DNA of 64,000 bases from Amphiscolops sp. MND2022 (GCA_964187785.1 OZ076412.1:23064001-23128000), one strand, 5' to 3'. Counted from the first letter of the stretch, positions 15,451 through 63,256 are shown. Program-made: numbers and translations. The notes: generated by a model from the letters alone, not told the origin.

Positions 15451-15966
15451 ACGTTTTGCCCCTGGGTTCCGAGCATTAGCACCGCAAGTGTTGTACGTCG
15501 ACCCCATAAATACTCAATTTTCTCATACAATTTATTTTGTGATTTTTTCAAATGACTTGAAGGAAATGTAATTCTCAGGGAATTGGTGATATAGACCTTG
15601 TGTAAACATACTTTTGTGACCAACATAATAAAAACGCCAAACAGACCACATAGTTTGATTACACAGCCAATAACTCCATCTTATGCATTGAATGTCATTC
15701 ATTTATACTTACTTAATATTTGATTTATGTTTACTGAAGAATTGTAAGCCATATTCATACCAATACTACAGAAAAATTTCCACGAGTGAATGGTTTTTGA
15801 AAATTTGAGTTGCTGGACCACGAGAATAACCTTTTGCTGAAAGTCACAGCGAACAAGTAGCTACTCTCATAGTTGGAGAGTTGGAGAGCGTGTAGATACA
15901 GAGCAAAGCGTCATCGCTGGCGATCCTGGGTCACATCCGTTGGGTCACAACGGACCTTCCAGCTAA

Positions 15967-19249: not shown

Positions 19250-19449
19250 NNNNNNNNNNNNNNNNNNNNNNNNNNNNNNNNNNNNNNNNNNNNNNNNNNN
19301 NNNNNNNNNNNNNNNNNNNNNNNNNNNNNNNNNNNNNNNNNNNNNNNNNNNNNNNNNNNNNNNNNNNNNNNNNNNNNNNNNNNNNNNNNNNNNNNNNNNN
19401 NNNNNNNNNNNNNNNNNNNNNNNNNNNNNNNNNNNNNNNNNNNNNNNNN
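19250..19449. other. Assembly gap (200 N)
   Basis: Run of N. Confidence 1.
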
Positions 19450-26499: not shown

Positions 26500-29400
26500 T
26501 TGGATGGCTGCTGCCCTCATTGTAAGAAACAAGTTGTGGAGACTGAAAAAGACTCCTTTTGTTGCAATGGGCGCGAGGTGTGGTATCATGGTTCCTGTGG
26601 AGGCATAGATGTGAACGACATATCAATACTTTCAAAATACGCATCTGTACATTGGTCATTGGTACTGCATGAAGAAAACAGTATGCAAGGAAAATCATCA
26701 AACGTTTGGAAAGCACTAAATCAAAAAAATCAGAGAAAAAAACAGACAACGAAACACGTAAGCAAGAAATGCAACTAATCGAATTGATGGAAAACGATGA
26801 AAAACTCACCATCGAATTGACACTGGATAATCCAGAACAAGCTACAAGCTACGCAACTGTGGTTAAAACAGCACCGCCCGACCGTAGTGTCGGTCCCAAA
26901 GAAGTTCATAAGGTAAACAAACAGCGCTCACCGCGGGATCCAAACAAGACTTTAATAGTAACTAGTAAACAGACGTTTTGAGACAGTGTTGATATCAAGA
27001 GGACGTTCGCAAAATTTTTTCCGCCAAAGAAGTTAGTATAGTTAGTAGATGCTTTCACAACTGCTCGAGGTTTCACACACTTGGAATTCTTCACAGTGGA
27101 AGAGGCCGAAATTGTCTTGAAAACCTTGAACCCGGAAATCAGTGAAGGAGATTCAGTTGCGCGGAAAGCAAATGATAAAACGAATGAACATAGCGCTCTC
27201 AATAGAGGGGTACCCCTAGAATTTGATAACAATGAAATCGAGCAGCATCTTGACAACAACTTTCCCGGTATAAAAGCGAGACGATTCGTCAAAGCGGACA
27301 AACAGCTCTACAAAGTGAAACTCTCGTTTCCTTCAAAACTGCCGTATTTACAAGGCCATGTCAGACGGCATAATCCTGGATGCTCTTTTTATCATCCCGT
27401 TGAGTTCGTACAACAAAGTATAAGAATCATTCGATGCTACAAATGCCAGAAGTTTGGCCACATGAGCAGTAACTGTCATTCAAAGGAATCTTGCAAACAT
27501 TGCGCCGATAAACATGGCGTCGCTAGATGCACCAACGAAGACAAACCAGCTAAGTGTAACAACTGCAAAGGTAACCACGAGGCTGATGATGCTAATTGTC
27601 CGGCATACATCAAGCAAATACGTACCGTCCATGATGCTCGCGGAATACCCATACGAGTCAGAAATGGATGAACGAAAACTGACCTTCATGCAAATTAACA
27701 TCAGCGGACTAAGTGAACACTCTGAAAGTGCAGTAAATCATTATGTACATGAAAAAGATCCGAAGGTGGTATTCTTGAACGAAACAAAAGCCAATATACC
27801 ACGGCATTTTCTGAACAACTACAACGCTATTAGGGAACGTAGCTCATAGCTTGGGTTGAGTCGCAGTACTACTGAACAAGAAATTCCGTACTCCAGACTG
27901 TTAGAAACTAAGGAGAACTCAAGCGACAACATAGTGTTAACAATAATGTAGATGGTTTAAAATTGGTCGTTTCTACAGCTTTTGTACAACAAGAGAACTT
28001 AAATGAAGTCAAGATTAAATTAAGGTTTCGGAAAACTATAGGGAATTGGTTGATGACAGCAAAACAATAGGTTGCATACTCTTCGGAGACCTGAATGCTC
28101 GTCATCAATACTGGGGTGACTCAAAGAGTAAACGTTTAGGAGAATAAAAGGTCAAAAGTGTGGATACATATAGCATACTCAACAATGGAGAACCAACTTT
28201 CACTTCAACAAACGGTTCAAGTGTAATTGACCTATGTCTCATCTACGGACCAATGGTCAGTCAAAACGAACATAATCTAACAACAGATGAGAATGTTGAA
28301 ATCTTCACAAGAGCTCCAAATAGAAGTCATGTGCCAGTTTTATTTGATTTGCAGTGTTCACTGGAAAAATTAAAACAAGAAAGTTGTGGATGGAGAAAGC
28401 AAATTGGCAGCTTTAGACAGATTTTGTTGAGACTGGTGTTGGTGAAATCGATCCGAATGACAACAACTCCACTACACAGTGGAATTTTTTTTGAACCTTC
28501 CACTGGAGAAATACATACCTTGAAAACTATAAATTGATAAAGCAAACCTTTTTTGGAATTCCGAATTAACGAAATCTAGTCAAGAGCTGAGACATCTGAG
28601 AAAAAAATTCAAATAATGTTCGAACTTCATAATTGGTGAAAAACTGGCGAGAGCTAAAGAGAATTTCAAGGAACCACTATCCGACAGTACGTCCAAATGG
28701 ATGAGTTGTTTCCTCAGCAATCATGGGCATAAGAGATGCCGAGACTTTTGGGCATGGTATAAAAATTAAATCAACAAGAAGAAGGAAGAGGTTGGGCTAA
28801 TAAGAAAAAAGACTGGTGAACTTCTTTACACGAAGAGCGAAAGTTGTACACAAAGTGAAACAAACTTTTTCTCCGGGCAAAATATCTCAAAACAAGCGAG
28901 GTTTTCTTACGACGCGGGGTTCTTTGAACATGTCGAACAGGAAGTCAGAATGCCTGACAGCAGTGAGGAACACCAAGATGATCCCTTCGTCGACCCACTT
29001 AATATGGAAGAGCTAATTGCAGCAATCGCCAACACAACAAGTACTAGGACTTTCCATACCCATGGCCAACACCTGACAATGGTCAAAAAGATGGGATAGA
29101 AAGCTCGAGATATGCTTCTCCAAACTTTCAACAACTGCTGGGAGACTGAGTCATGGCCTTGGAAAGAATCGCGAGTTAATTTCTTCCGTGAGCCGAAGAA
29201 AGAGAATTACGACGACTGTTCATCTTACCGACCCTTGTCCATCTCCAGTCACTTTGCTAAACTCTTTGAACGAATTTTGGCCAGTAGAATTAACAAATAT
29301 CTCGACTTGCACAACATCATTGGTCAAGAACAAGAAGGCTTCAGAACGAAAAGAAATACTGTGCTATCACTATACAAGCTTCGTCTATCGCTGGAACGAG

Positions 29401-33175: not shown

Positions 33176-33674
33176 ATTGGTGGACTGAAGTAATTGATGA
33201 AGAAGAGGGTTGAAAACTACGTGAATTGAAACGAATAGAGGAGTTAGAACATATATATTTCTAACGGTCAAAATTTGTATTGCGAACCCGTGCCCCCCTA
33301 ACATGATGGCCCAATTGGCACAAGAATAATGATCATCGATTTGTATCATCTGAGAGAGGCTTAAAAATTCTTTGCAATTTTGTGTGACATTACTGCTCAA
33401 CGGCGATTTGACACTGAAGCTTTTACCGCTGAACTACAGAATGGTAGTCCGACCAGGCGGTGTATCCTCAACATTGAAAGTGTGAGCTGAAAAAACCAGC
33501 TGATATTGTCTTCTACTAATAGTCGGTAAGACCTGTCATTGATGATCCTCCCCATCCTATATTACTACTACTGGAGAAATCTTTTAGAGGGTCCCCTTTA
33601 GCTGTTGTAGATATATCGGTTATATTTTAATGCATTTATTTTAAAGCGCTCTATCATTTTTTTATATAGATGCT

Positions 33675-36600
33675 ATGACAGATTTTGGTAGATCTTCGTT
33701 TGCTCCGGGACGACCGTCAACTGCCATCCCGCAAAAAGGACGAAAAGTTCCAAAGTTTTTTGAAGAAACTGATGCTTTTGTGTTGAGTACTTTTGGGGGC
33801 TTGTTACCAATTGCTGCCAAAGACAATTTGAAAAATGCCGCCTCGTCAAGTGGACTAATGGACGAAACTAGTGAAAATATTTTATTCGTTTCTTCGAGGA
33901 ATATGTATTTGTGGAGTTTGAAATGGGGCGAACATGGAATGAAAAAGTTTTGTTTGCCTTCTAGCGCTGTTGCTATAACGAGAAGGCACATTTCATTAAC
34001 CGTTTTCCCAAAATCTGTGGCTTTGGTTTGTGTTACCCCGTCTGGCTATCTTCGATACTGGAAAACCTTAACATGTCCAAATGCATTCTCAGAAGCTGCC
34101 CTTCCTATACGTGATCAGGAAGTTTTTTCTGTTGTTCAAGTTATGTTTGAAAAAATGGTCGTCGCTACAACTAATTGCACAATTTTGTTTGTTGATAAGA
34201 ACATGGCAAGCAGAGAATTGAAGATGACGTCTAAAAGTCACCGGAGATTATCAAACACATTTTTTCTCAATCTTTTTCTTGACTCGCGTAAACCTATAGA
34301 AAGTTTTCAGGATTTCGCTATGAGCCATCGCTTTAAGTCTACATCACTACATAGAATTCTTTCGATAGTAATGATATAATTGGAATAGCAATATTAAATA
34401 GAATATATTTCGAAAAATATTCAACCATTTGATTATTGATACATGGTGAAAGTATCTAATATTTTCAAAAAAGGTACTACAATGATAAAAATATTTTCTA
34501 TTTACTTCGCTATTCAATAAAAATGGCCCTTGGTTAGGAAATTGTTTGTTTTGTAGTTATTCTTTCAAAGTCCAGTATGATAATCTCGGAAGGTGGTTTT
34601 ACTTCTCGCCTGGCGTCCGTGACGTCATATTTCATGCCTTCGTCAACCAGTCAAGAAGACATGGAGCAACTCAAAGCTCTTCTAGTGCCTGTCAGATCTG
34701 AAATGTGCATAATGGCGATTTCCAACCTCAATTTATATTTGATCAACTTCCAAGAAGAAAAGCTCGTGTGGTGTGTAAACGTGTGTGATGCTTTGAAACC
34801 CCATTTGGAAGATAAAGATGCCCGAAATATTTTGGTGTTGAATGCGAGCTACTGGGGCGACGAGAGTGACCTGATTTTGCTTTTCAGTTACAAGCAGGGG
34901 TGCGTGTTTACATTTCATGAACATAATACACAAAAAGCGCAAAGTCTCAAATTTGCTCAGAGTGGCCTCTAAGAAATTCTCATGAATTTCAGAAAAGCAA
35001 AAAAATCAAAGGGGCGCCCTGTGGGTTTAGGAAACGAATTGAATTTTTTACGGGAAAAACTTCCGGAAATAAAATTCTCAAGTCCCCTATTTTGCGGTAG
35101 CGTTTCGCCAGCATTCATCATGACTGAAGGATTCTACTCCTCTGGATGTCTGGGTCACTACGGGAAATAAGTCCCAGTGTCGAAAAGGTTAAAGAGGGGA
35201 CCCTTTAGGCTCGAAAAAACTTTGACCCTCTAAAGTTAGCAAACATGTCGTTTTTAAGGAGAATCTCACTAATATAAGAGTGCCGAAAAACAGGGTCGGG
35301 CAGTATTTTTCACGAAAAGCGCCGACTAAAAATAATGGTTCAAAATAGTTTAGCAGAAACCAGCACATCTGTGGACTAATTAATTTTACTTCAATGTTCA
35401 TATACGGAGATGTATAACTATTCCTATGAATTTATCTTGTGGTTAACGATTACATGCGGTTACTAAGAGAAGCAGTCAGATCTGCAAAGTGTCAGATCGC
35501 CCAAATTTCATATAAATGTGCCGTTATGCGATCTGTTCTCATAAAAGATCCTCAATAAAACATGTCCAAATCAAGATTTGAATTCAATCATCAGTAGAAA
35601 TTATTCACTATTAGTAGTAAAGGAAGGGGGGGTTTATGAACGTTTTTGGCTCCCAACCGAAAATTTTCTAAGATAGAATTCTTATGCACGTTTTGGGCTC
35701 CCAAGTCGAAAACTTTCTAAGATAGATTTCTTATGCACGTTTTGGGCTCCCAAGTCGAAAACTTTCAAAGTCTTAAAGCTCAAAGGTCAAACTGACTCTT
35801 TAATCAAAATGTGTGCCATATGTCAAGTTTTGTTTACATTTCCTTTTCTGACTTAGAATAATCTCGACTTAGGAGCCATAAAAATGCAATAAGAATCTGA
35901 GAATCTTAGAATATTTTCCTCTGTGAGCAATGCCATCAGAATATATGACTGAATCTGAGAAACATAGTCAAAATCAGCCCAAGAATGTCCAAAAACTGTT
36001 TTTTGACGTTCTCAAAAACTGTCCGTATGATTCAAACGAATTTTCTATAGTCGTTCTACACTATATTAGAGTCCTATATGTACAAAGGCATCAAAATCGT
36101 ATGGCCGGGATTTGAGAAACAGCCAAAATTGGATCAAAAAGTGACCAAAATCGGCCATTTTTTGACTTTTTTCGATTTTTTCAAAACTGCACGCGATTAG
36201 AGTTCGAACGATTTTTAGTCGGTGCTTTTTAGAAGAAAATTAGCCCAACTATTACAGGGACTAGTTTTTTTCGTCAGATAACAGAATGTATGCGTAGTGG
36301 ACACTTTTTCTACAGAACTATTAAACTACTGGACCGGCAAGCGGGAACGCATCTAAGTTAGTGCAAACGGTCCCCCCTTTCGTGTACTCAATTTTTAACG
36401 AAAGATACAAAATCGGACGGGACTACAGGGTCGCCCCTTTTCGGCACTGTGCGACTTTTTTTGAATTATTTCATGTCGCCAAAGGGTCCCCCTTCATGTT
36501 TTTTTTATATTTTGCAGCAAACTGAAGTTTCAAAAAGCCCAATGGGTCTCTTTTTTAGTTTTTCGGCACTATGAGACTGTTTCAAAATTCTCATTTTTCG

Positions 36601-39600
36601 GTCCTATGTGTGCAGTTAGATCAAAATACTATGTGAAGCTGAGCAACATAGGCAAAATTACTTGAACACTGACCAAAAATATGTACTGTATATTGAAAGA
36701 TAGATCGAACAAAGGTCCTATACGGCTGTGTTCATAGAATCTCAGCTACTTTAGAACTATAGTATGGTACTGTATGTTGAAAGATTGATCGAATATAAAA
36801 CCTATACGATCGTGCTAATTGGATCTTAGCTACTTTAGAAATATAGTATGGTAATGTATATTGAAAGATAGATCGAATATAAGTCCTATAAGACCGTGTT
36901 CATCGAATCTCAGCTACTCTAGACCTATAATATGGTACTGTATATTGAAAGATAGATCGAACAAAGGTCCTATACAGCTGTGTTCATAGTATCTCAGCTA
37001 CTTTACCCCTATCGTTTTGTAAAGTAAATGGAAAGATAAATCGAATATAAGTCCTATACGAAAGTGTTCATCGAATCTTAGCTACTTTAGACTTATAGTA
37101 TGGAACTGTATATTGGAAAATAGATCGGATATAAGTCCAATACGACCGTTCTCATCGAATCTTAACTATTTTAGACCTAAAATATGGTACTGTATATTGA
37201 AAGATAGATCGAACAAAGGTTCTATACGGCTGTATCTCAGCTACTTTACTTCTACAGTATGGTACTGCATATTGAAAGATAGATCGAATATCATTCCTAT
37301 ACGACTGTGTTCATTGAGTCTTAGCTACTTTAGTCCTATCGTTTTGTACTGTAAATGGAAAAATAAATCGAATATAAGTCCTATACGAAAGTGTTCATCG
37401 AATCTTAGCTATTTTAGAAATATAGTATAGTATTGTATATTGAAAGATAGATCGATAAATAAGGCAATACGACCGTGTTCATCAAATCTTAGCTACTTTA
37501 GACCTATATGGTACTGTATATTGAAGGATAGATCGAACATAGGTCCTATACGGCTCTGTTCAATGGATCTTTGCTACTTTAGTCCGATAGTAGGTACAGT
37601 ATACTGAAAGATAGATCGAATGGTCTGGTGGTATGAACTAACTGAAACTACGTTGACAAATGAAACGAACTTCCCATCCAAGTTGAATTTAGAAGTTTTT
37701 AATCATCCTAATAGTGGTCAATATCGCTACAGAATCAACTGAAACCTGAGCGAGTTGATTCAACGAGGTATGGTGATATAAACAAACTGGAACTTTCTTG
37801 ACAACTCAATCGAACTTCCCATTCAAGTTGAACTTTGAAGTTTCCATTCATCCTAATAGTCAATATCAACAAAGAATCAACTTAACATTTCTACGTTGTC
37901 TAATGGAAGTTATACAAACGGTTCTCGGAATTGATAAAACCAAACCTGACTCAAATAAAAACCGTTTCCATTATCATAACACTTTTTGACAATAAACGGT
38001 GTTGGACGAACTTCTGCAACAAACACGCAATGAACAAATCCGGATCGATTGAAGCAATTATTAGCGCTATGTTTAGCGGGAAAACGACCGAGCTTCTCAA
38101 ACGGGTTAAACGTTATAGTCATCGTCAAAAATCCTGCGTCGTGGTCAAATACGCAGGTGACTTGAGATACAGCTCCACGCATGTTGTTTCTCACGACGGG
38201 CAATCACTTGAAGCAATTGGGACATTGACACTGGATGCAGTTTACGAAAAAATGTCGCAATATGACGTTGTAGGTAAGTTGTGGTACCTTGCTTTTCCAT
38301 TCTTTTTATCTGAAAAATTGCTCAGAAATCGTTTCAGGCATTGACGAAGGACAATTTTTCGATGACATTGTTGAAATGTGTGACCAATTGGCTATGCCAA
38401 TGAAAATTGTCGTCGTCGCGGCACTGATTGGTATCCACCGCAGAGAGGGCTTCAAAACATTCTCAATCTCCTACCCAAAGTTGAATCAATTAAGATGTTT
38501 ACCGCTATTTGTGGTATGTGTTCGGAAGAAAGAAGTTGTTTCACAAGGCATCGAACATTAGTGGAACCAGAAGAAATAACAATTGGTGGTGAAAACGATT
38601 TCATCACACTGTGTCGCAAGTGCTGGAAACTCGAAGAACAAAACTAAAGAAAAAATTGAGCATTACAACCTCGATCACAAACACTAAATAACTGATTTCA
38701 TGTGTAACCCGTGAAAGTAAAAGATTTAATTTCAAACTTTTCTAGTCAGAGAACACACAATGCAAAATAGTCCAGTCAACAATTTCAGGACTTAGGAGCT
38801 TGAACAATTGGTTGTGGATGTTCAACTGGTGAGGTGCAGTTAATTCGTTTTCTGTGCTATAGTTTTCTTTCAAAATCATTTTCTTTCATTGTTTTGGATG
38901 TTTGAAAATATTTGTGTCAACTCAGTGAATAATTCTTTTTTTGGTCTCTTGTGCTGCACAAGCAAGCAGTAAACCTTTTAAAAACTCGCGATAATGTTAT
39001 TTTGACAAAAACTCGCTCATGTTCATCTCATTTTCGGTTTGCAGAAACCTCCCGTTACAATACTTGAGCGAATAGTTAAAAATTTCATCGTCGAACACAG
39101 CCTAATTTTCCGGGTAGATTGCTGCGAGCATCGTGACTGAACCAAGGCTGAATGTTTTTCGGTTGGTGTCAGACAGTCAGCAAAAAGTCCATAGCAACAA
39201 ATTGTACATTGTGTCACTGATTTCACTACGCAAAGAAAAATACCCAGAGAACTGCAATCAAGCTATCAATTCTACCAACTCCAATACGAGCAGCAGGGAG
39301 AAGGCTATGCGTCGATGAGAGCAGAACGCGGACTGGTTCCCGGATGAGCGTAGGTACCCTGAGTTTTGAAGATACGAAGATGTAGCATCTCGACTGTATG
39401 AATGAAAATTGAGTTTTGAAAGCTCAAAGGGGAAACTTGAAAGTAAATAGTCTCAGTGCTCAGAGTTTGGTCTTGCAGCTTTATACGAATTCATCCGACT
39501 TGTATACAGCAATCGCACTGTATCAGAACAGTGGCTACACTGGGATTGCTGTGTCTGTTCTGCTGAGCAGAACTTGAATTGCTGCTGTTGTTGGTTTGTA

Positions 39601-42600
39601 TGATTGAATACGAAGAAAAATTGACTAGCAACATCTGAATACTGGTTTGGAGATCCACAGGAAAAAAAAGTGAATTAATAGTCCTACAGAGTAACCAAGA
39701 ATTTGTTGTTCTTGCTAGCACTTTCATTCTGAATCGCGAGATGATTTGTGAATCCTGGCGCAAAATTATTTTCATGATCCTTTGCAAACCATGTATTTTC
39801 AGTTGACGTGGACAGTGTTGAAACAATATTATGAGAGTTTCCAGAAACCTTTCTGAACGTATACTCTAAAAAACTAGGTCAAAAACAACTTACAATCACT
39901 TTCCAAAGCCCGACTCCAAAACGGATTGTATTTGTATCGAAATTATTTCCCACAAATTATCGAATTTTTACCGTTTAAACATTGTGATTCTTGTGTTGAA
40001 ATTGAGTGCCCGGTAACGCTGGGTCGAAAACTTCAATTCAAGCAGGCAGTGTGGTCTGAGTGATTAGTCCTGCAGCTAGATACCATACTAATCTGAATTG
40101 TATCGAGCGATCAAATCACTGGGGTCACACGCAGAAAACTTCGCCGTTACAATACTTGAGCGAATAGGTAAAAATGTCATCGCTAAATACAGCCTAATTT
40201 TCCAGGTAGATTGCTGCGAGCATCGTTACTGAGTCAAGGCTGAATGTTTCTCGGTTGGTGTCAGACAATCAACAAAAAGTGCATAGCAACAAATTGTACA
40301 TTGAGTCACTGATTTCACTACGCAAAGAAACATACCCAGAGAATTGCAATCAAGCTATCAATTCTACCAACTCTAATACGAGCAGCAGGGAGAAGGCTAT
40401 GCGCCTATGGGAGCCGAACGTGGACTGGTTCCCGCATGAGCGCAGGGAGCCTGAGTTTTGAAGAAAAGAAGATAAAAAAATGTAGCTTCTCGACTCATTG
40501 AATGAAAATTGAGTTTTGAAAGCTCAAAAGGAAAACGTGAAAGTAAATAGTCTCAGTGGTCGGAGTTTGGTGTTGCAGCTTTATACGAGTTCATCTGACT
40601 TGTATACAGCGATCGCACTGTATCAGAACAGTGGCTAAACTGGGATTGCAGTGTCTGTTCTACTGAGAAGAACTTGAATTGCTGCTGTTGTTGTTGCTGG
40701 TGTGTATGATTGAATACGAAGAAGAAAAATTGATTGGCAACATCTGAATACTGGTTTGGAAATCCACAGGAAAAAAGTGAATTATTAGTCCTACAGAGAG
40801 ACCAACAATTTGTTGTTCTTGCTAGCACTTTCGTTCTGAATCGCGAGATGAACTTTGTGAATCCTGGCGCAAAATTAGTTTTCATGAACCTTCGCAAACC
40901 ATGTATTTTCAGTTGACGCCGACAGTGTTGAAACAATTTTATAACAGGTTCCAGAAACCTTTCTGAACGTGTACTCTAAAAACTCTTACAAGTCAAAAAC
41001 AACTTACAATCATTTCCAAAGCCCGACTCCAAAACGGATTCTATTTGTATCAAAATTATTCCCCACAAATTATCGAATTTTACCGATTAAACATTGTGCT
41101 TCTTGTGTTGAAATTGAGTGTCCGGTAACGCTGAGACGAAAACTTCAATTCAAGCAGGCAGTGTGGTCTGAGTGATTAGTCCTGCAGCTAGATACCATAC
41201 TAATCTAAATTGTATCAAGCGATCGAATCACTGGGGTCACACTACTGTTTTGATGGTACAATTGAAGACTAGTCGCTCATCTCGTGAAGTCTCACATTAA
41301 CTGCTTCGGGTTTGATTCAATTCTTCACTGACGGATTGCCGTCTCACTCACTGATTTCAAAGCGACTCCTTCATCGCAATGTGGCTCCTGAAGGCAACTG
41401 ACCGAAAACCAAACGACGTCGAAAAAATTGTGACTTTCACGAAGCAGAGGATTTTTGAGACTCCAAGTTGTTTTTGTACAGCTGTTCAAATTTCACATTT
41501 CTGTGCCAACCGTACCTTACCAACTTAACTCCAAGCAGGTGGAGGCCATGCGCCGACGAGCGCAGGGCGCTGACCGGGGTCCGGTCCGCGCTCTTGGCCT
41601 CCACCTGCTTGGAGTTAAGTTGGTGCTATCGAAGCATTCCGGGCCGCGCTCAACGGCGCAAGGCCTCCACCTGCTTGGAGATGAGTTGGTAGAGTTTTGA
41701 CATTTGAACAGCTATACTTCGCCACCGACCGCCGCGATCCGGGTTTCGGCTCGCCGATCGCCGCAATCCGGGTTTCGACTCGCCGATCGCAGCGATCCGG
41801 GTTTCCACTCGCCGACCGCAACAATCCGGGTTTCCACTCGCCGACCGCAGCGATCCGGGTTTCCACTCGCCGCCGCCGAGTCAAAGGGCAACTCTTGGAA
41901 CCAAACCAAACGAGGTCTATGGTACAAAGAATATTTTGATCCTCTCAGCAAACATTTGATTTGGTCCATCCTGGCTCTTTGGGAAATCTGTCTGCAGATC
42001 AAACACCAGCAAAGCTTGTTTTTAAATATGCGGTAATCTTGTTGACTTATCCATCAAACGGGCCTCAAACTTTTGACTAAATCGCACTGTATTCTAAGAT
42101 TGACCTCAGCATTGTATATCAAACTATTCCTACCTATCAAACTGGTCATTTCCTTACTAGTCGTATGATGAAGACTTAACTTGGGTTTACAACCAAATTT
42201 CAGAAACTAAAGTATGATGAGAATGTTAGGTTTCAGACAATGTTGCTTCAGACGATTATAGTGACTGTGATGAATCAGTGAGCTGCAGCAACAGCAGCAG
42301 CAGTGTCCCCAATTCTGACAGTGATACTTAAATCGACTCCCTCAATATTTTAGATGCCCTCAATAACAGCTGCTCGTCGCGTGCTTCGAGCTACGCGAGG
42401 CCACTGAAACAAGCTTCGAACTCTGACTCGGCAAATTCCATTTGGTACCGTTTCATTCATAGTGTATCGATCACTTGATATTCACCATTGATATTAACCT
42501 AATTGTTAATTTAGATGCGGCCGATCCTGGCCTTAATCAATCAATCAGCTTCTAGCTCTAACGATGATGGAGAATTCGCAAATGTTCTTGACTGGGATGC

Positions 42601-45600
42601 TCTATCTGACTGAATATTCGTCAAAAACGCCAAATAAAATAAAGACACGTTCTAACCATTAGTTGTCTCGTCAGATCATCGATTTTCTGCAGGCGTTCAC
42701 TTGTTATCCTAGTTGTGTGCACCATTCCTGACTTTGGAAGCCCTGCAGTTGAAATAAAATTTTTGAAAAATTCTGAAAAATTTCGAAGTCCCACAACGTT
42801 TGCTCGGGAAATGCTAGAACGCTGAAACCTCGTTGAAAAGGCCAAACGGTTTTGCTCGGGAAAATTTTGGGCAGGGGTTCCCCCTATACAGGAGGGGTCT
42901 TGGAAGAACTTTTTCGGTAAAACGGTAGTGATCAATCGGGATTTTCCTGAAAAATGGTCAAAAACGCCAAATTAAAATAAAGACACGTTCTAACCAGTAT
43001 TTTTCTCGTCACATCATGGACTTTCTGCATGCGTTCACTTGTACTTCTAGTTGTGTGCACGATTCCTGACTTTGGAAGCCCTGAAGTTGAAATAAAATTT
43101 TTGAAAAATTCTGAAAATTTTCAAGTCCCACAACTATTGCTCGGGAAATGCTAGAACGGCGAAACCTCGTTAAAAAGGCCGAATGGTTTTGCTCGGGAAA
43201 AATTTGGGAAGATGTTCCCCCTATACAGGAAGGGTCTTGGAAGAACTTTTTCGGAAAAACGGTAGTGATAAATCGGGATTTTCCTGAAAATTCGTCAAAA
43301 ACGCCAGGTTAAAATAAAGACAAGTTCTAACCAGTAGTTTTCTCGTCAAATCATCGACTTTCTGCAGGCGTTCACTTGTAATCCTAGTTGTGTGCACGAT
43401 TCCTGTCTCTGGAAGCCCTGCAGTAGAACTAAAATTTTCGAAAATTTCTGAGAATTTTCTAAGTCCTACAACTTTTGCTCGGAATATGCTAGAACGCTGA
43501 AACCTCGTTAAAAAGGCCGAATGGTTTCGCTCGGGAAAAATTTGGGCAGGGGTTCCCCCTATACAGGAGGGGTCTTGTAAGAATTTTTTCGGAAAAACGG
43601 TAGTGATAAATCGGGATTTTCCTGAAAGTTCGTCAAAAACGGTCCTAAGTAAAGGCCAGGTTAAGATAAGAAGATGTGCTAGCCAGTATTTTTCTCGCCA
43701 CATCATGGACTTTCTGCATGCGTTCACTTGTACTTCTAGTTGTGTGCACGATTCCTGACTTTGGAAGCCCTGAAGTTGAAATAAAATTTTTGAGAAATTC
43801 TGAAAATTTTCAAGTCCCACAACTATTGCTCGGGAAATGCTAGAACGGTGAAACCTCGTTAAAAAGGCCAAATGGTTTTGCTCGGGAAAAATTTGGGAAG
43901 ATGTACCCCCTATACAGGAAGGGTCTTGGAAGAACTTTTTCGGAAAAACGGTAGTGATAAATCGGGATTTTCCTGAAAATTCGTCAAAAACGCCAGGTTA
44001 AAATAAAGACAAGTTCTAACCAGTAGTTTTCTCGTCAAATCATCGACTTTCTGCAGGCGTTCACTTGTAATCCTAGTTGTGTGCACGATTCCTGTCTCTG
44101 GGAGCCCTGCAGTAGAACTAAAATTTTCGAAAATTTCTGAAAATTTTCTAAGTCCTACAACTTTTGCTCGGGAAATGCTAGAACGCTGAAACCTCGTTAA
44201 AAAGGCCAAATGGTTTCGCTCGGGAAAAATTTGGGCAGGGGTTCCCCCTATACAGGAGGGGTCTTGTAAGAATTTTTTCGAAAAAACGGTAGTGATAAAT
44301 CGGGATTTTCCTGAAAGTTCGTCAAAAACGGTCCTAAGTAAAGGCCAGGTTAAGATAAGAAGATGTGCTAGCCAGTATTTTTCTCGTCACATCATGGACT
44401 TTCTGCATGCGTTCACTTGTACTTCTAGTTGTGTGCACGATTCCTGACTTTGGAAGCCCTGAAGTTGAAATAAAATTTTTGAGAAATTCTGAAAATTTTC
44501 AAGTCCCACAACTATTGCTCGGGAAATGTTAGAACGGTGAAACCTCGTTAAAAAGGCCAAATGGTTTTGCTCTGGAAAAATTTGGGAAGATGTACCCCCT
44601 ATACAGGAAGGGTCTTGGAAGAACTTTTTCGGAAAAACGGTAGTGATAAATCGGGATTTTCCTGAAAATTCGTCAAAAACGCCAGGTTAAAATAAAGACA
44701 AGTTCTAACCAGTAGTTTTCTCGTCAAATCATCGACTTTCTGCAGGCGTTCACTTGTAATCCTAGTTGTGTGCACGATTCCTGTCTCTGGGAGCCCTGCA
44801 GTAGAACTAAAATTTTCGAAAATTTCTGAAAATTTTCTAAGTCCTACAACTTTTGCTCGGGAAATGCTAGAACGCTGAAACCTCGTTAAAAAGGCCAAAT
44901 GGTTTCGCTCGGGAAAAAATTGGGCAGGGGTTCCCCCTATACAGGAGGGGTCTTGTAAGAATTTTTTCGGTAAAACGGTAGTGATAAATCGGGATTTTCC
45001 TGAAAAATCGTCAAAAACGACAAATTAAAATAAAGACACGTTCTAACCAGTAGGTTTCTCGTCAAATCATCGACTTTCTGCAGGCGTTCACTTGTAATCC
45101 TAGTTGTGTGCACGATTCCTGACTTTGGAAGCCCTGCAGTTGAAATAAATTTTTGAAAAATTCTGAAAATTTTCAAAGTCCCACAACTTTTGCTCGGGAA
45201 ATGCTAGAACGCTGAAACCTCGTTAAAAAGGCCAAATGGTTTTGCTCGGGAAAAATTCGGGCAGGGGTTCCCCCTATACAGGAGGGGTCTTGTAAGAACT
45301 TTTTCGGTAAAACGGTAGTGATAAATCGGGATTTTCCTGAATATTCGTCAAAAACGCCAGGTTAAAACAAAGACACGTTCTAACCAGTAGTTTTCTCGTC
45401 AAATCATCAACTTTCTGCAGGCGTTCGCTTGTAATCCTAGTTGTGTGCACGTTTCCTGACTTAGGAAGCCCTGCAGTTGAAATAAAATTTTTGAAAAATT
45501 CTGAAAATTTTCTAAGTCCCACAACTTTTGCTCGGGAAATGCTAGATAGCTGAAACCTCGTTAAAAAAGCCAAATGGTTTTGCTCGGGAAAATTTGGGCA

Positions 45601-48600
45601 GGGGTTTCCCCCTATACAGGAGGGGTCTTGTAAGAACTTTTTCGGTAAAACGGTAGTGATAAATTGGGATTTTCCTGAATATTCGTCAAAAACGCCAGGT
45701 TAAAACAAAGACACGTTCTAACCAGTAGTTTTCTCGTCAAATCATCAACTTTCTGCAGGCGTTCGCTTGTAATCCTAGTTGTGTGCACGTTTCCTGACTT
45801 AGGAAGCCCTGCAGTTGAAATAAAATTTTTGAAAAATTCTGAAAATTTTCTAAGTCCCACAACTTTTGCTCGGGAAATGCTAGAACGCTGAAACCTCGTT
45901 AAAAAAGCCAAATGGTTTGCTCGGGAAAATTTGGGCAGGGGTTCCCCCTATACAGGAGGGGTCTTGTAAGAACTTTTTCGGTAAAACGGTAGTGATAAAT
46001 TGGGATTTTCCTGAAAAATGGTCAAAAACGCCAAATTAAAATAAGGACACGTTCTAACCAGTAGTTTTCTCGTCAAATCATCGACTTTCTGCAGGCGTTC
46101 ACTTGTAATCCTAGTTGTGTGCACGATTCCTGACTTTGGAAGCCCTGCAGTTGAAATAAAATTTTTGAAAAATTCTGAAAATTTTCTAAGTCCCACAACT
46201 TTTGCTCGGGAAATGCTAGAACGCTGAAACCTCGTTAAAAAGGCCAAATGGTTTTGCTCGGGAAAAATTTGGGCAGGGGTTCCCCCTATACAGGAGGGGT
46301 CTTGTAAGAACTTTTTCGGTAAAACGGTAGTGATCAATCGGGATTTTCCTGAAAAATGGTCAAAAACGCCAAATTAAAATAAAGACACGTTCTAACCAGT
46401 AGTTTTCTCGTCAAATCATCGACTTTCTGCAGGCGTTCACTTGTAATCCTAGTTGTGTGCACGATTCCTGACTTTGGAAGCACTACAGTTGAAATAAAAT
46501 TTTTGAAAAATTCTGAAATATTTCTAAGTCCCACAACTTTTGCTCGGGAAATGCTAGAACGCTGAAACCTCGTTAAAAAGGTCAATTGGTTTTGCTCGGG
46601 AAAAATTTGGGCAGGGGTTCCCCCTATGAAGGGGTCTTGGAAGAATTTTTCAGAAAAACGGGAGTGACAACTCGGGATTTTCGTGAAAATCAAAACGAAT
46701 CAAATAATAAAGTTTGCCAATTTCAACTGGTTATTAGATTTTAAACACTCGTTAAAACGGGTTTGTCAAAAATCTCAAGGGGGATCCTTTTGTACCATTG
46801 GAAAATTCGCCAAGAAACGTTATATTCGTTATACGTTAAATCCGGTATGGATCATTTTTGTCGAAGGGGACTCATTAGCACTCGAGCGTCAGTTGCCTTG
46901 TTCGTTTGCAAACAAAATTCGCGCCTAGTCTACCGAAATCCCCTTTTTCTATGCAATCTGTGAGCTAATTAGAAAGAAGTGTTGACATATCGTTTCACCA
47001 ATTTCAACAAATTCAACTCAAGATTCGTGAGAAAAATAAATTAACTCTCTGAACGTTCAGAATTTGTGATTGGAAAACAGTTACAGCTGAGAGGTTTTTC
47101 TAGGTCGTTTCGGAGCCTTGAATACAACCAGGGCCTGATCATCTTCATCTGTCGCTTCTCCTTGTTGCACTTCTTCAGCTGTCTGTGCTTCTTGTTTTTC
47201 TTGCTCTGCTTTCTCCTCCACTGATGCAGTTTCTCCAACTTGTCCCAGTACCTCTCTTGCTTCATCTTCACCGTGTGATTCCAGCCAGCTACGATACTTC
47301 AATACCAACCCGCAATGATGGATGCTTAGGTGAAACTTTTTCTCCATCCGATCTTTGTCCTGATTGAATTTGAACGCCTTGAGTGTATAATACACTGCCT
47401 TTTTAGAAACCAAATCAACGTTGTAGATGTTTGTTGAGACACGGAAGACGTCGTGTTCTCCTAAATTCGATAAGAACTCACGAGACAAACTATAAATGTT
47501 ACCAACTTTCACCTTTTGTAATGAGCGGGAAAAGAACAAATGGAAGTAACTGTCACGTTTGAACATTTTCAATGATTTTACCTGAAATTTCAACAGTTTG
47601 AATTGACGTTTTTGCCTTTTTGTTTCGATTTTTAGACCTTTTTCTTTGCCCTGATTCTAAATCTTATCCAAGTCCTAAAATTATAGATCTCAACTCGTAT
47701 TGTGTTCGTTTTTGACTCTAGAATATTAGATCTTTTTCTTTACTCCCACCCGAAATACAGTAACTTGAAATTCCATGAAGCACCAATTCAAATTTCAGAA
47801 ACATACTTTGTTGGTGAAATATGATTGTAGTGAACCTGCTGTCCGTTTTCAACCCGTTATCTTCGGTGACCGGAGGCTTATAAATAAGTCCCACAACTTT
47901 TGCTCGGGAAATGCTAGAACGCTGAAACCTCGTTAAAAAGGCCAAATGGTTTTGCTCGGGAAAAATTTGGGCAGGGGTTCCCCCTATACAGGAGGGGTCT
48001 TGTAAGAACTTTTTCGGTAAAACGGTAGTGATCAATCGGGATTTTCCTGAAAAATGGTCAAAAACGCCAAATTAAAATAAAGATACGTTCTAACCAGTAG
48101 TTTTCTCGTCAAATCATCGACTTTCTGCAGGCGTTCACTTGTAATCCTAGTTGTGTGCACGATTCCTGACTTTGGAAGCACTGCAGTTGAAATAAAATTT
48201 TTGAAAAATTCTGAAAATTTTCTAAGTCCCACAACTTTTGCTCGGGAAATGCTAGAACGCTGAAACCTCGTTAAAAAGGTCAATTGGTTTTGCTCGGGAA
48301 AAATTTGGGCAGGGGTTCCCCCTATGAAGGGGTCTTGGAAGAATTTTTCAGAAAAACGGGAGTGACAACTCGGGATTTTCGTGAAAATCAAAACGAATCA
48401 AATAATAAAGTTTGCCAATTTCAACTGGTTATTAGATTTTAAACACTCGTTAAAACGGGTTTGTCAAAAATCTCAAGGGGGATCCTTTTGTACCATTGGA
48501 AAATTCGCCAAGAAACGTTATATTCGTTATACGTTAAATCCGGTATGGATCATTTTTGTCGAAGGGGACTCATTAGCACTCGAGCGTCAGTTGCCTTGTT

Positions 48601-51600
48601 CGTTTGCAAACAAAATTCGCGCCTAGTCTACCGAAATCCCCTTTTTCTATGCAATCTGTGAGCTAATTAGAAAGAAGTGTTGACATATCGTTTCACCAAT
48701 TTCAACAAATTCAACTCAAGATTCGTGAGAAAAATAAATTAACTCTCTGAACGTTCAGAATTTGTGATTGGAAAACAGTTACAGCTGAGAGGTTTTTCTA
48801 GGTCGTTTCGGAGCCTTGAATACAACCAGGGCCTGATCATCTTCATCTGTCGCTTCTCCTTGTTGCACTTCTTCAGCTGTCTGTGCTTCTTGTTTTTCTT
48901 GCTCTGCTTTCTCCTCCACTGATGCAGTTTCTCCAACTTGTCCCAGTACCTCTCTTGCTTCATCTTCACCGTGTGATTCCAGCCAGCTACGATACTTCAA
49001 TACCAACCCGCAATGATGGATGCTTAGGTGAAACTTTTTCTCCATCCGATCTTTGTCCTGATTGAATTTGAACGCCTTGAGTGTATAATACACTGCCTTT
49101 TTAGAAACCAAATCAACGTTGTAGATGTTTGTTGAGACACGGAAGACGTCGTGTTCTCCTAAATTCGATAAGAACTCACGAGACAAACTATAAATGTTAC
49201 CAACTTTCACCTTTTGTAATGAGCGGGAAAAGAACAAATGGAAGTAACTGTCACGTTTGAACATTTTCAATGATTTTACCTGAAATTTCAACAGTTTGAA
49301 TTGACGTTTTTGCCTTTTTGTTTCGATTTTTAGACCTTTTTCTTTGCCCTGATTCTAAATCTTATCCAAGTCCTAAAATTATAGATCTCAACTCGTATTG
49401 TGTTCGTTTTTGACTCTAGAATATTAGATCTTTTTCTTTACTCCCACCCGAAATACAGTAACTTGAAATTCCATGAAGCACCAATTCAAATTTCAGAAAC
49501 ATACTTTGTTGGTGAAATATGATTGTAGTGAACCTGCTGTCCGTTTTCAACCCGTTATCTTCGGTGACCGGAGGCTTATAAATAAAGTCTGTCGGCGTTT
49601 GGCTGAACGCGAGCTGGGTAAAGATTATTTGAACCCAGTCCAAGTCCATCAGTTCAGAGAAAATTGATTTATCAACCATCAACTTGATTTCGTCCTCGTT
49701 GTGTTTTTGCATTGTAATTTGCATTTTGTCAGTGTTTTCCACGACTGTTAGTTCCCTACCATTGCCAGTTCACAAACAAGAAGTTCGATTGATCCATTTG
49801 AACGAATGAGTTGGGGCTGATTGTCAAAGATTTTTCGGTGTTTAGCTCGAACAAAGTTTCGGTGTTCTGTTCTGAGTTGTTCTTTGGGAAATTTGCTGAT
49901 TGCGGGTTTGTATGATTGTTAATCTGTGAGTTGATGGTTACTTTTGTTCATTCAGTCATTTGATAACGGATGAAATTTATTGAAGTTTAAAATCTGATAG
50001 CAGTTGAATTTAATTGAAGTTTAAATTTTTCAAAGAGGCAGTTCAATCATCTTGACACTAGCTAACTGAGTCAATGTTTGAAAAGTATTAAAATTCGGTT
50101 CATTTTCCGGTGTTGTCTGCGATAAAAGACCATTTCGATTGATAATCAATAATTACCATAGTTTATGATCATAATTATTGACTATTTGGTCTCGAAATAT
50201 TTGGCATGAATATGAACTTCAGAAAAGAGTCAGTTTGACCTTTGAGCTTTAAGACTTTGAAAGTTTTCGAGTTGGGAGCCCAAAACGTGCATAAGAAATC
50301 TATCTTAGAAAATTTTCGGTTGGGAGCCCAAAACGTGCATAAGAATTCTATCTTAGAAAATTTTCGGTTGGGAGCCAAAAACGTTCATAAACCCCCCTTC
50401 CTTTACTACTACTATTATTCATATTTCTAGTCGGCGCTTTTAGAATACAAGAGCCGGACTATTACAGTCACTCGTTTTTTAGTTTGTTCAGCTAAATGAA
50501 TACCTCGGAAACGCATCTAAGCAGAGAGTCTCTTTCATTTTTAATTTTTAACGTAACATACAAAACCGGACCAGACTAAAGTGTTCCCCTTTCGATTTTT
50601 TTTCGGCACTGTGTGAGACTTTTCGAAAATGCCTCCAAAAAGTTCCCCTCATTTTTTTTGCAGCAAATCGGGTGTTTAAAAACCCCAAAGAGTCCCCCTG
50701 TTACATCTTTCGGTACTATGAGACAGTTTCAAAATTCTCATTTTTCTCTGAAATTTGGTTTTCTCAATGCTTCATTTTTTCAATACTATTCGAATTTTTG
50801 ACGTTACTTCCGAAGTAAGTTGCGTTTCACTAGAGAGGAAGCTGAGGTTCGAAAAAGCGCTCCTGTCTAGCCCTGCACGCTATATCATAATTTTTGAAGC
50901 GTTTTCAGAGCACCAAAGGCACGCTTTGGCTGTTTCAAAACTGTTGTTCTACATCTTCTTAGTTGTTTGTACTGTTACTTAAGCAATTTTTAGTTGATCT
51001 AAGAACCTAGCTCATCGATCAAGTTATAATGTTGTTTTTTAGAACCATTCAGTCGACACATTTTTTGTGATGTACCTGCTCAATTTCATCAAAACCTATT
51101 GAAATTACTATTCCTCTGTTTTTTCGCGTCATGCGACAATACAATGAAATCCGCGTAGCCTCTAGTGTTTCATTGTATGATCATTTGTGGTCCCTGAATA
51201 AGTTTCGTTTTCTAATATTCCGTACCCCTGCTTGTTGAAGGCAAAGTGATGCTTCATTGTATGCTTTCGCCCATCTGAGTTTCGACTTGACAAAATCTAC
51301 TGCGGAATTCTCAGTTGCGATTTTCCCTTTCGACTTAAATTCAGTGTTATCAAATCCAAACATTCAGGTAGATAGAGCATGAGCCATTCCTTGAAAACTT
51401 TTCAATATTTTTAACCTTCTAAAACCCGGATATTAGAAAGTTCGATTAAAAAAAACACCAATAGTCGTTCCCCTGATGTTGATTATATCCGGGATCCATT
51501 GTAATTAATTTATTTTCATTCATTCTTTTCATTGTGTTTTCAATTAAGCACTGGAAGTTCAAACTGATGATTGGTTCTTGCTCTACAGGTTAACATCAAT

Positions 51601-54600
51601 GATTGTGAACTTTACTTTCCATTCACCAAGTTCTGCGATGGATGTTTGGTGTTTAAAAACGGAATTATTCATCTTTCTTCCATTTTCAACGAAAACCAAG
51701 AAGACTGTGTCTCTTCCATTGTTGATTTCTCCGTGAGCGAGGACAAAATTGTCACTTTTGGAGCTTATCAGGGTCCGGCATGGGGATTGGAAAATTATAA
51801 TTGTAACAACTATTATTTGAATGTCTGAAGGGGACTTCCCGCTTGGCCGAATATCCACTTAGCTGAAAAAAGGGGTTAATGTCGAATTCATAATATCAAT
51901 CAACGGCTGATCAAATTCATTACTCAATTACTGAAAACTATTCAAGACATAACGGGAACGGCATAAGTCTGCGCTCGCTTAAAACTCAAAGTGTTTCGAA
52001 ACAAAGTGCTCACACTGTTTTTCAGTATTTTAATTTGAGGCTTCCTTTTGAAAGTAAAATTCTGTTGCGTTAACAGTCTCTCTTATTTCAAAAACGTTCT
52101 TTCCACAAAACAGCGACAAATGTTTGGTTTCGTAGCATGAAATTTTTGTCTATCAAAAAAATTTTACAGTGTCACAATGCACTCAAATTTGAACTCAAAT
52201 TTTTGTACATTTTTCAAGCTTTTTCAGCATAAACTAATTGAAATGTGTTTTCGGTTGTTTTCTTGAAAATGATTTGAGACGGAAAGTATCCCTTTCTTTG
52301 TTCAGCGGTGTCTCCTTAATTTCAATTGACAAATGAGTTGAATCTACTTCACTAATGCTTGTAGAAGCACCCAAAAAATTCCAATCCCTGAAATTTGAAG
52401 GAACAATTTTGATGCTGACGGCGAAACGCGGCCTGATCAGTTTTGTGAGCAAATATGAAAGACAGCTTCGCGAGTTCCAGTCGGTCACTTCGTTGCAGAG
52501 GACGCTGCAAGAAATCTTCGAGATATATTCGGCTGAACCCGATCAGCAATTGAAACAACTTCTATTAATTTACAGACGTGCAAAATCGTCCAACCAGGGA
52601 TTACCAAAAAGCAATTTGATCACTTGTTAATTTTCCCACGTCTTTTCAACTATTGTTGTTTGAATCCATTAAAAATCAATCGTTAATCGGGACCACATTT
52701 TCTAATGAAAAGTCATCAATCGTTTTTATCTTGCAAGATTTTGCAATGGGCGTTTTAGATTCAACAAGAGAATATTATGTCAAATTCAGCATTTTTTGCA
52801 AAGCTGATGTAAAAGCTTCGTGAATATTTAGATGAAATATGCATTCATGTAGAGGAGTGAATACGTTTATAACGATATTCCAGTTATAGCGATAGAGTTT
52901 CACGGTCCCGGCCACGATGCTAGTATATAACGATTTTCGCCTATAACGATATTCGGATATAACGACTAAAAAAACGCCGGTCCCCGGGCAATCGTTATAA
53001 GCGGAGTTGAGTGTATACAAAAGTTGAGATGCTTTTAAATTTTGGCAATCCCTACTAGTTCTTATCCGCGGCTGAACCTTACATTTCTTCTTTGGCCTTG
53101 TGTATCAATTTAGACGCCATTGTTTATGAATGCGCTTTGTCCATTGCCAACGGGTATCTCGACTACAATGATGCTGTAGCTTCAGGAATGTTTATAACTT
53201 TGAAAAACTTAACCGCGGAAAAATTTCGATTTCTATCCACCAATATAGTGGCGATTTGAACCTATTTGGAAATGCCTATCAAATCAAACATTCCCGTATT
53301 GGAATTCAAATTCATGTGTGTAATTGGAAAAATGCCAAAACTTGAAGAAATTGCTGCTTGTTTTCAAGCTAATGCAGCTGAAACCTTTGAAGACGTTCAA
53401 ATAAGTTTTCATCAGCCTTCGATGTGAGTCATTTTCGAAACATTTGACGGGTTTACATCAAGTTGAAAAGATTTCAAGAATTTTGAGGACATTTGGTTCT
53501 GATTTTGAGGTTAATTTTTTGATATTCCTCTTCTGCAGCTTCTACGCCTACTTTGAATATTGAAAATGTGCTGCAAGAAAAACTGGAAGTGATGGCAGTG
53601 TTTCTGAATTTCTTGCAACAATCGAAGCTGATCGGTCATCTCAAGTCTCTAGAAGAACTTCCGCACTTGGGTGAGTCTTATCAACTTCGGTCAGAATCAA
53701 TATGATGTCATAAAATTTTACTCTGTTCTTAATGCTTCCTGCTTCCGTTAGGACATCGTTTCCTCCTGATTTCCCAGTGGTATCCCTTTAACTACTTGTT
53801 TTAAATTCGCACTTGCTGTTTGGTGGCTGATAATTATGGAGGAAATAAATTTGATTTTTTTAAAAAATTAGTGTTTTAGTATTTAGATGGACTTGCTCCG
53901 GATCTTGAAAACTTGTGTCATTGAAAAGTTCATCTCAACTGCTGAAACAATGACTATGAATATTTCCAGATTAAATTAGCAAATTAGTCCATTCAATTTA
54001 GACGAGCGTGAAACTGAGCTTATGAAATTTCTATTCATTCAGTTTTTGAATTTCAGGTCTCAAACAGCCATTCCCTACGTTGCTTGCAGTATGTCGAATT
54101 TTTGAAAACATTGGATGTATGAAGACCTTTTACAAACTGCATTGCAGCAACCCTTCTGTTTTTGACCCCTTCATTCACGTGGCAGTGGAGAACAGGGGCA
54201 CTCATTCCCATGCAGGTAGAGCATGGACCACTTGAAGTTTTTTTGCGAAAATTATCTGGTTTTTCCTACTAATGTCCATTTTTTTGAACAGGACATATTT
54301 CAAACACATTTAATAGAAACTTTCTTTTTAACACGTTATATGAACCTTAACATATACATTCTGTTCTGAGCGTCTGCAAAAAATGCAGTAATTTATTCCT
54401 GAGAAGCATTTCAAAAAAATTATGAATGCAAATGTTTGAAAAGATCATCGCTTGCAGGTTTGCAATGTGAAATTGCTTGCTCATTAAAGATGGTAAATTA
54501 GGTAAATGGTCCTTGCACTAATAAATCTATGCAGGCGATATCACCCTCAGCTTTTACAAAAATGCATCTAACTTCGAAGAATTGTTCGACTTGATAGCCA

Positions 54601-61812: not shown

Positions 61813-63256
61813 AAAATATTTTTGGTCTTATTGCATACGTTTATCATTATTTTTTGTGTGATCTGTACTTTAGTTTGTTGTGAAGATTAATTCATTGTTT
61901 TTTCAAAAAATGCTTGTTTTAGTTTCTTAATTGGGTAAATAGTGATAGTTTTCACGTAAGTTTTGATGAGTTTCGGCAGTTTTCTTTCGACCTAAGTTAA
62001 CCGAGTTACTTGAAATGCATTCTACTTATTTGGCGTTAAAAGTTTTGAAACTTTTATCTGAGTTTTGATCTTTGTTGGACAGATGAAAGCTGGAATATTA
62101 TTAACAAGCTGGGAACGGCATAAGTGGGCGCCATATCTATGGCTCAAAAATAGCAAAAGGACTGTTGACCACTTACTCTGTTTGACTAGAATACGGTTCG
62201 TTCTCGTTTTACGGAAAATACACTTTACACTTGATGATAAAATCCACTTTTGCGGCATATGTAGCGTAATGGACATGAAAGTGTCAAAAAACTCAAAGTA
62301 TCAAACTCACGCAAAACCCAAACGACGGATTTTCCAAAAAAGTCTCAAAAAGCCCAAAAAAACTAAAAGGGGGACCCTTTTGGATTTTTCAACATCCATT
62401 CTGTTGCAAAACCGAAAAATTGAAGGAGGGACCCTTTGGGGAAATTTTTTTTGAAAAAGTCTCAATGCCGAAAAAAACTGAAAGGGGGGACTCTTTAGTC
62501 TCTCCCGGTATGGTGTTACGCGGAAAAAGAGGAAAAACCTTTTTGGTTCAGTTCGCTTGGCCAAATGATTCAATTTGGGACCATAAAATTTTGTAGAACT
62601 ATTTTGGTCAGTTCGTTTGGATTGAAAAAAAGAGTCACTATAATAGTCGCGTTTCACTTCATGAAGCGCCGACTAAAAATCTGAGCAGTAGTTTTTGCTC
62701 AGACAAGAATATCGTGACTGGTGTTCAGTCCTGCTCAAGAAAACGAGCGAAACTATTATTCTTATAATAAAAGGTGTCGATTAGTTACTTGACTCTAATC
62801 GTTCGCTGAAAGTTTGGGCTGCATTTAAAAGGTCGTTGGCGCTATTTCATGTTCAGATGCAGATCTTTATTCTCTCCTATCCAGCAACAAAGCTGATGCT
62901 CCAAAATTTGGATGCTTTCAGTGAAACTTAACAACAGCTAGCTCTGCTATATTTCGGAAATTGGGACTTTCGAGAAATCTGTCTGCACTTCGAAGGATTA
63001 CCTGTGGATATTGTCAGAAAGTTTTTATGATTTTATTTTCAAAAAATGAAGGAATATAAATAGAACGTTTCATAATAACTTCAATTGGTTGATAGATTTT
63101 TGAAAACCGGTTTTTGAAGAGTTTTAATTTGAAGACTTCCGGGCTCGTAAATGGAGGAGTCAACTGGACTCTGGATCTTCAATGTTGTGATTGTTTTCAG
63201 ACCTATTTGTTGCTCGCCTTTCCGCGACCTCTTGTTGAACACGCATCTAAATCACA

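Follow-up and report, generated by a model that had tools for sequence, protein, structure and literature searches.

Protein-primed strand-displacement replication is the established model for Mavericks, and non-autonomous Polintons are already known. The hallmarks of Mavericks given in the available text of PMC8097293 are (AGT)2//(ACT)2 ends and a 6-bp target duplication. In nematodes, Mavericks carry intron-bearing cargo genes, the wasp proteases and krma kinases, which have been read as host-derived; in the available portions of bioRxiv 10.1101/2022.07.12.499685 this cargo encodes a protease or a protein kinase and lies a few kb inward from the left terminal repeat of complete or partial Mavericks. 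Here we describe a family of elements whose cargo, an intron-bearing thymidine kinase (TK) gene, lies at a similar position, but which differs from the nematode cases in that the gene encodes a nucleotide-salvage enzyme, was found on non-autonomous elements only and is often present in two mirror copies. With the animal Mavericks/Polintons of PMC8097293 and PMC6431247, as far as the accessible text of both describes them, the family shares the (AGT)2 motif, the terminal inverted repeats and the 6-bp duplication, and it has DNA homology to autonomous Mavericks of the same genome both at the ends and inside. In contrast to Mavericks/Polintons, no pPolB, integrase, ATPase, protease or capsid genes were found in the family and many of its members are near-complete palindromes. 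In our literature search we met no report of non-autonomous Mavericks that are palindromic or carry TK, although such families may be described in Repbase, in supplements or in papers under subscription. The available text of PMC6431247 and of bioRxiv 10.1101/2024.01.15.575659 contains no palindromic non-autonomous Polinton.

The 64,000-nucleotide stretch of DNA analyzed here (the window) contains a broken gene of the TK1 type on a non-autonomous element. With a probability of roughly 70%, we regard such elements as having been copied and integrated by full-length Mavericks, the kinase having raised the nucleotide supply. The element is 14.8 kb long (35613-50410), has AGTAGT ends and is flanked by a perfect 6-bp target duplication, ACTATT (35607-35612 and 50411-50416, both + strand). 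Its left terminal inverted repeat (35613-35830, + strand) begins with AGTAGT followed by a G run, and the right one (50224-50410, - strand) terminates in ACTACT. Over about 230 bp these ends are 93% identical to those of a pPolB-bearing Maverick at C3:75266385-75280180. By its ends, its target duplication and the ends shared with an autonomous element, the window element is a non-autonomous Maverick/Polinton, and the preliminary description of this DNA was right to call the TK gene the cargo of a Maverick-type element.

Inward from the left repeat, an 84-bp subterminal tandem array (36671-37621, + strand; 11 copies in the window element and as many as 77 in its sisters) precedes a conserved region upstream of TK, a putative promoter (37625-38029, + strand). 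The TK gene is followed by an inner arm (38648-41517) with an internal 1.1-kb tandem duplication (39031-40130 and 40131-41242) and by a Y-shaped hairpin made of a stem and two unequal branches (41519-41624; predicted -55.8 kcal/mol, z -12.75), which is the symmetry centre of palindromic family members. Then come a third copy of the hairpin stem (41646-41691), a 29-bp tandem repeat (41725-41876, + strand), two segments 79-80% identical to DNA just past pPolB of the autonomous Maverick at C3:75.27 Mb (41895-42610), and twelve copies of a 338-bp tandem array (42610-46690, + strand). A 191-codon open frame (47081-47656, - strand; second copy at 48779-49354) has neither a Pfam match above the cut-off nor an Atlas match; by tblastx it is homologous (E 9e-8) to a small ORF that autonomous Mavericks have next to pPolB. 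In the inner arm no ORF is conserved across five copies, tblastx against a 70% homologue gave no clear frame, and Rfam yielded no match at E 0.1. Neither Pfam nor tblastx matched a pPolB or an integrase in the window element; for packaging ATPase, protease and capsid genes, tblastx against the autonomous loci gave one small shared ORF and otherwise non-coding homology. The only recognizable enzyme gene of the TK elements is the intron-bearing TK.

On both sides of the element there are matches to a Nup133-like gene (33645-34972 and 51500-61900, + strand), at E 0.006 and 0.01, below the cut-off; since these weak matches flank it, the 14.8-kb element probably sits within a Nup133 intron. RPLP1 is also matched in the window (E 1e-8). 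Elsewhere in this intron-rich genome, at C6:65484018-65486045, we noted an intronless 1422-codon frame matching Nucleoporin_C at E 9e-104, which could be a retrocopy, an intron-free paralogue or foreign DNA. Among the other repeats of the window is a dispersed MITE-like sequence with GGGTCCCCC motifs and inverted arms (36331-36670, 50520-50750, 56400-57980 and 62350-62520), one copy of which lies within the element. There is also a Gypsy-type LTR retrotransposon (1442-7976, - strand) with a gag of 579 codons and a pol of 1479 codons covering protease, RT, RNase H and integrase, and there are LINE-type fragments (15873-18000 and 27042-27671, + strand) with an endonuclease domain (E 3e-12) and a zinc-knuckle ORF. 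A 200-N assembly gap occupies 19250-19449.

The TK gene lies on the + strand and consists of exon 1 (38030-38273), a 64-bp GT-AG intron (38274-38337) in phase 1 within G|IDEG, and exon 2 (38338-38647). A profile search matched it to PF00265 in three pieces, at 38030-38272 (E 1.5e-19), 38340-38453 (E 4e-8) and 38459-38644 (E 2.7e-10). After splicing, the frame departs from that of TK at about 38453-38457, where comparison with open copies places a 1-nt deletion, and reaches a stop at 155 aa. Profile matches, splicing and comparison with open copies thus agree with the TK1-family gene, the intron and the single-nucleotide frameshift proposed from the window alone. The same proposal had read two altered motifs, SAMFSGK in the P-loop and ALIG, as signs of decay, and both sequences are indeed present. 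In the P-loop the G-to-S change is found in the window copy only, among six copies compared, and the P-to-A change recurs, together with the frameshift, in two further insertions at C13:32.53 Mb (L106) and C5:35.80 Mb (L065). ALIG cannot be counted as decay of the window copy: it is a trait of the whole family, as all 23 open 184-aa copies have it and so do 18 of the 19 stretches that could be aligned from 20 lower-scoring loci. The frameshift had been taken for real decay, and this holds. Three separate insertions carry the same break, which rules out an assembly error and also means that the window branch was copied after its TK broke.

To place this copy in its family we searched the genome for TK; the copy counts were drawn from 150 of 167 exon matches, and 150 of 270 candidates were scored. 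The matches listed belong to at least 95 element TK copies and one host-like gene on C12; a search for all TK1 copies had been proposed in the preliminary description. Within this set 44 copies form 22 convergent pairs less than 10 kb apart, and no divergent pair occurs. All 14 pairs that were fetched are the two arms, each 5-7 kb long, of palindromes. An arm has the order end, 84-bp array, TK, non-coding inner part and Y hairpin, and the palindrome consists of two such arms. The hairpin of the window lies at the centre of 13 of the 14 palindromes, a self-complementary form with a fixed central hairpin that is known here as integrated sequence. Fold prediction gave a stem with two unequal branches for five of six hairpin copies folded; shorter variants lack the small branch. 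Because six of the ten single TK copies first fetched run into a 200-N gap at the hairpin or directly beyond it, palindromes are probably undercounted. Asymmetric elements with an open TK also occur.

Many palindrome centres coincide with 200-N gaps or bear short hairpin repeats, and four of 12 palindromes lack a target duplication. On these grounds one might take the palindromes for artefacts of the assembly or the library, in a family that is an ordinary non-autonomous Maverick. We consider this very improbable, as a perfect 6-bp duplication spans both ends in the other eight of the 12 (and in 12 of the 13 asymmetric elements for which both ends were located; four elements have one end missing by the search pattern used), three palindromes are free of gaps (L023/24, L027/28 and L029/30), and the arms, 0.5-8% apart, have private changes and arrays of unequal length. 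In six of nine palindromes each arm has the other as its sister, and 7-53 columns are private to the pair. Of the three with non-sister arms, two lack a target duplication and lie by assembly gaps, and the arms of the third both pair with other elements. A test for mis-joining of two half-elements on C3 and C4 gave no overlapping flank. The hexamer CTTATC is common to the left flank at L053:3294 (C4) and the right flank at L022:7201 (C3), which hints at mis-joined or recombined arms. Another palindromic element, between L157:1339 and L158:4311 (C7:73.18-73.20 Mb), has inverted CAA/TTG repeats in its outer flanks rather than a direct duplication. A flip/flop reading of the hairpin was ruled out, its orientation in a palindrome merely mirroring the direction of insertion.

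The elements carry six types of end. Their distribution does not track the inner-arm tree, and three of them match separate autonomous ends at 89-94%, from which we infer that ends were swapped among family members; for one type, T1, no full-length partner was seen. With 91 of 1905 candidates scored, the genome has at least 74 pPolB loci. The autonomous Mavericks fetched are about 14 kb long, encode pPolB, integrase, A32 ATPase and adenoviral protease, and have AGTAGT-G-run ends like those of the TK elements. It had been suggested that intact TK might lie inside such autonomous elements. This was not borne out: tblastn found none in 30 autonomous Maverick loci (from the pPolB loci among the 91 of 1905 candidates scored), TK having been found on non-autonomous elements only, and the scored pPolB nearest to any of the 95 TK copies is 237 kb away. 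GC3 is 0.41 for the element and 0.42 for pPolB as compared to 0.64-0.72 for host TK1; six host exons in the window range from 0.33 to 0.67. From the ends, the duplications and the dispersed near-identical copies we infer that the family was mobilized in trans by protein-primed replication and an integrase.

Several features of the autonomous loci were noted in passing. At L087:6780-8730 an array of ~84 bp, related to that of the TK elements, lies just past pPolB of a different Maverick lineage, and a second Maverick adjoins (L088). The pPolB frames at L078:4258-8100 and L072:3477-7304 start with C2H2 zinc fingers, and a helper pPolB gives a weak endonuclease VII-like match (E 5e-5, just below the cut-off). 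One autonomous lineage has a phospholipase A2-like ORF (L071:5354-5863, E 0.006), which is also a feature of adintovirus-type elements. A search of viral contigs and metagenome contigs for relatives of the family gave no locus. Database proteins at 84-100% identity were not counted as spread to other species, some of them matching copies of this genome letter for letter.

We then considered where the TK gene came from. The host TK1 on C12 has its intron 1 at the same codon and in the same phase as the element TK intron, and host intron 2 is missing from element TK. The comparison of intron positions thus came out in favor of the DNA-level capture from the host genome that had been proposed from the window. 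The trees, by contrast, do not show a host origin, they allow it: in free quick trees host and element TK are never joined, and the element branch is long (1.1-1.5) and has no stable sister. When the two were held together, using 38 of the 125 rows, the log-likelihood was 13.3 above that of the free quick tree with a p-AU of 0.68. Element TK is 47% identical to host TK1, no higher than to other homologues (46-48%), and its best matches among solved structures, above human TK1, are chains 4uxh and 5fuv, which we take to be trypanosomatid TKs. Identity and tree shape would suit a TK acquired from a virus or another eukaryote, with the intron gained independently at the proto-splice site of the host gene. 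A precedent for such a viral source is offered by the bidnavirus segments described in the accessible text of PMC11071296, where a TK-like gene sits, as here, on a separate piece of a system with a Polinton-type polymerase; those segments belong to a parvovirus-like virus, whereas the TK element has Maverick ends, a spliceosomal intron and no capsid-associated gene. A foreign source nevertheless seems somewhat unlikely to us. The intron is identical in site and phase to that of the host gene, the AU test does not reject host and element together and the tree constrained in this way scores higher, and the core genes of Mavericks lack introns while cargo with introns is likely host-derived, according to the available parts of bioRxiv 10.1101/2022.07.12.499685 and PMC8097293. 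Likeliest, judged from the gene comparisons, is a capture at the DNA level from the host lineage. The shared codon and phase of the intron speak for the DNA level, and the 47% identity together with the long branch for an old event.

If the gene came from the host lineage long ago, the next question is whether it has been of use since. Among 43 better-scoring copies 24 are open after splicing and four are not spliceable by the pattern used; among 19 lower-scoring ones a single copy passed the open-frame test and ten could not be spliced by this pattern. In L023, L024 and L061 the intron measures 66 bp, and a single open frame of 245 codons between stops runs across the unspliced TK. For a test of selection, 18 open copies were taken, one per element, excluding five second arms or likely duplicates and one 182-aa copy. 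Variants shared between elements comprise 15 synonymous and 12 nonsynonymous changes, which gives an omega of 0.22 (binomial p 1e-4); for singletons the counts are 23 and 55 and omega is 0.65 (p 0.10; 6 ambiguous singletons set aside), and the two classes differ with a Fisher p of 0.02; the test rests on 27 shared variants among related, non-independent copies. Thus the dN/dS analysis that the preliminary description had suggested points to purifying selection on the shared variants. Divergence across 13 arms was 0.041 in exons, 0.077 in the intron and 0.087 in downstream DNA. The pattern is that of a TK that would be selected during element copying and free to decay after insertion.

The gene is dispensable to the individual element. 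Eight sisters that are 98-100% identical to the window element have lost TK together with its flanks, and as seven of them show target duplications of their own, TK is not required in cis; this TK-less derivative is the youngest-looking expansion of the window branch. A benefit of TK to a self-synthesizing element, as first envisaged, is consistent with the selection on shared variants, but the carriers are non-autonomous only and do without the gene in cis. That TK-less and TK-broken branches have spread well, that older copies are mostly broken and that singleton variants are near neutral could also be taken to mean that TK is a passenger, its open frames stemming from young copies and the apparent selection being a remnant of a previous existence in an autonomous virus. 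We find this quite unlikely in view of the depletion of amino-acid changes among variants shared between present elements, an exon divergence half that of intron and flanking DNA within the same copies, and the lack of an autonomous TK carrier in the 30 loci tested, with the nearest scored pPolB at the distance given above.

Element TK contains the P-loop, the DEGQF and D-x-R-Y motifs and the two CxxC motifs of the TK1 family PF00265 (human TK1, vaccinia and trypanosomatid TKs) but has 184 aa without a C-terminal tail. Compared to 120 homologues and numbered as in human TK1, the family retains the P-loop, D58, R60, E98, Q100, L124, F133 and the zinc cysteines. All 23 open copies have equivalents of E98, R60, D58, M28, Q100 and L124, and the four zinc cysteines are found in 21-23 of them. 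Against this background four positions have changed: D125I (in none of the 120 homologues), F128H (in 6 of 120), Y181F (in 3 of 116) and histidine at R165 (in 2 of 117), where an arginine follows one residue later or the alignment is shifted by one residue. All four changes are fixed in the 23 open 184-aa copies and occur in most older copies, and host TK1 retains D, F, R and Y. In the portions of PMC8757434 available, E98 is the catalytic base, with roles also for R60, D58 and M28, and F128, R165 and Y181 lie at the thymidine site, R165 and Y181 stacking on thymidine and F128 bonding to it. The thymidine pocket, the R165-Y181 stacking pair and F128, is thus not conserved in the family TK, and with such changes at thymidine-binding residues the protein may not phosphorylate thymidine.

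This leaves room for a selected pseudo-kinase or an enzyme of altered specificity, which would bind ATP and zinc but act on a modified base, escape dTTP feedback or alter host TK1 by entering its oligomer. Family-wide change at four pocket positions, old copies included, next to an intact P-loop, catalytic base and zinc site is what one would expect of it. It is a possible reading, though a doubtful one. HMMER places the arginine one residue later opposite human R165, some homologues have single changes of such kinds, the bonds of F128 to thymidine may be main-chain, and the mobile-element part of our main explanation would stay the same. Judged by its residues, the family TK is probably an active enzyme with a changed thymine pocket whose specificity or feedback control likely differs from that of host TK1.

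The preferred reading, a broken TK1-type gene on elements served by full-length Mavericks, can be put as a sequence of steps. Once the gene had been captured, in the form of genomic DNA, from a host-lineage TK1 with an intron, a helper pPolB would copy the element from its protein-primed ends via strand displacement. A new strand that runs past the hairpin could fold back to serve as its own template, which would yield a palindrome usable at both ends, and a template switch at the hairpin would join an arm to another right half, giving asymmetric elements like that of the window. An integrase would insert either form with a 6-bp duplication. One might speculate that the endonuclease VII-like part of helper pPolB could resolve the central cruciform. 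TK protein made from replicating copies would be a shared good that raises dTTP for all copies in the cell, which would explain both the selection on TK and the success of TK-less derivatives; the window branch, having lost its TK, would depend on helper functions and, perhaps, TK supplied by other copies.

With regard to their palindromic form the elements resemble two further systems. Foldback transposons have long inverted arms and internal tandem arrays of variable length like the TK palindromes; they have longer target duplications and cut-and-paste transposases, whereas the TK elements have Maverick ends and 6-bp duplications. The snapback subgenomes of AAV, as described in the accessible text of PMC8235507, are likewise helper-dependent and self-complementary with one end folded back, and have been proposed to aid the population. 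However, they are transient virion genomes of a Rep/ITR system, while the TK palindromes are heritable and integrated and combine a fixed fold site with a captured gene. One may go further and regard the TK elements as an accessory half-length segment of an integrated Polintovirus, with a protein-primed end and a parvovirus-like Y hairpin, a head-to-head dimer through which it would replicate and as which it would integrate, ends swapped to suit different helper subfamilies, a re-tuned host-derived TK as payment to the helper, and TK-less cheaters arising from it. We put this forward tentatively, as an unlikely case. If true, Polintons would be naturally linked to segmented viruses with hairpin ends, and a single animal genome would preserve the record of a public-goods system.

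For annotation, the family carries a risk, in that one host-like TK1 found next to about 95 element copies could be misread as an expansion of a gene family. As far as the substitutions tell, it also seems to offer a naturally re-tuned TK1. Maverick replication in animals has been modelled, not observed, and from a family with one fold site, the ends of several helper subfamilies and a metabolic gene under selection, particular free DNA intermediates can be predicted. Selection on the trans-acting cargo of a non-autonomous element, lost in a younger branch, would make this family one in which cooperation and cheating of mobile elements can be put to the test.
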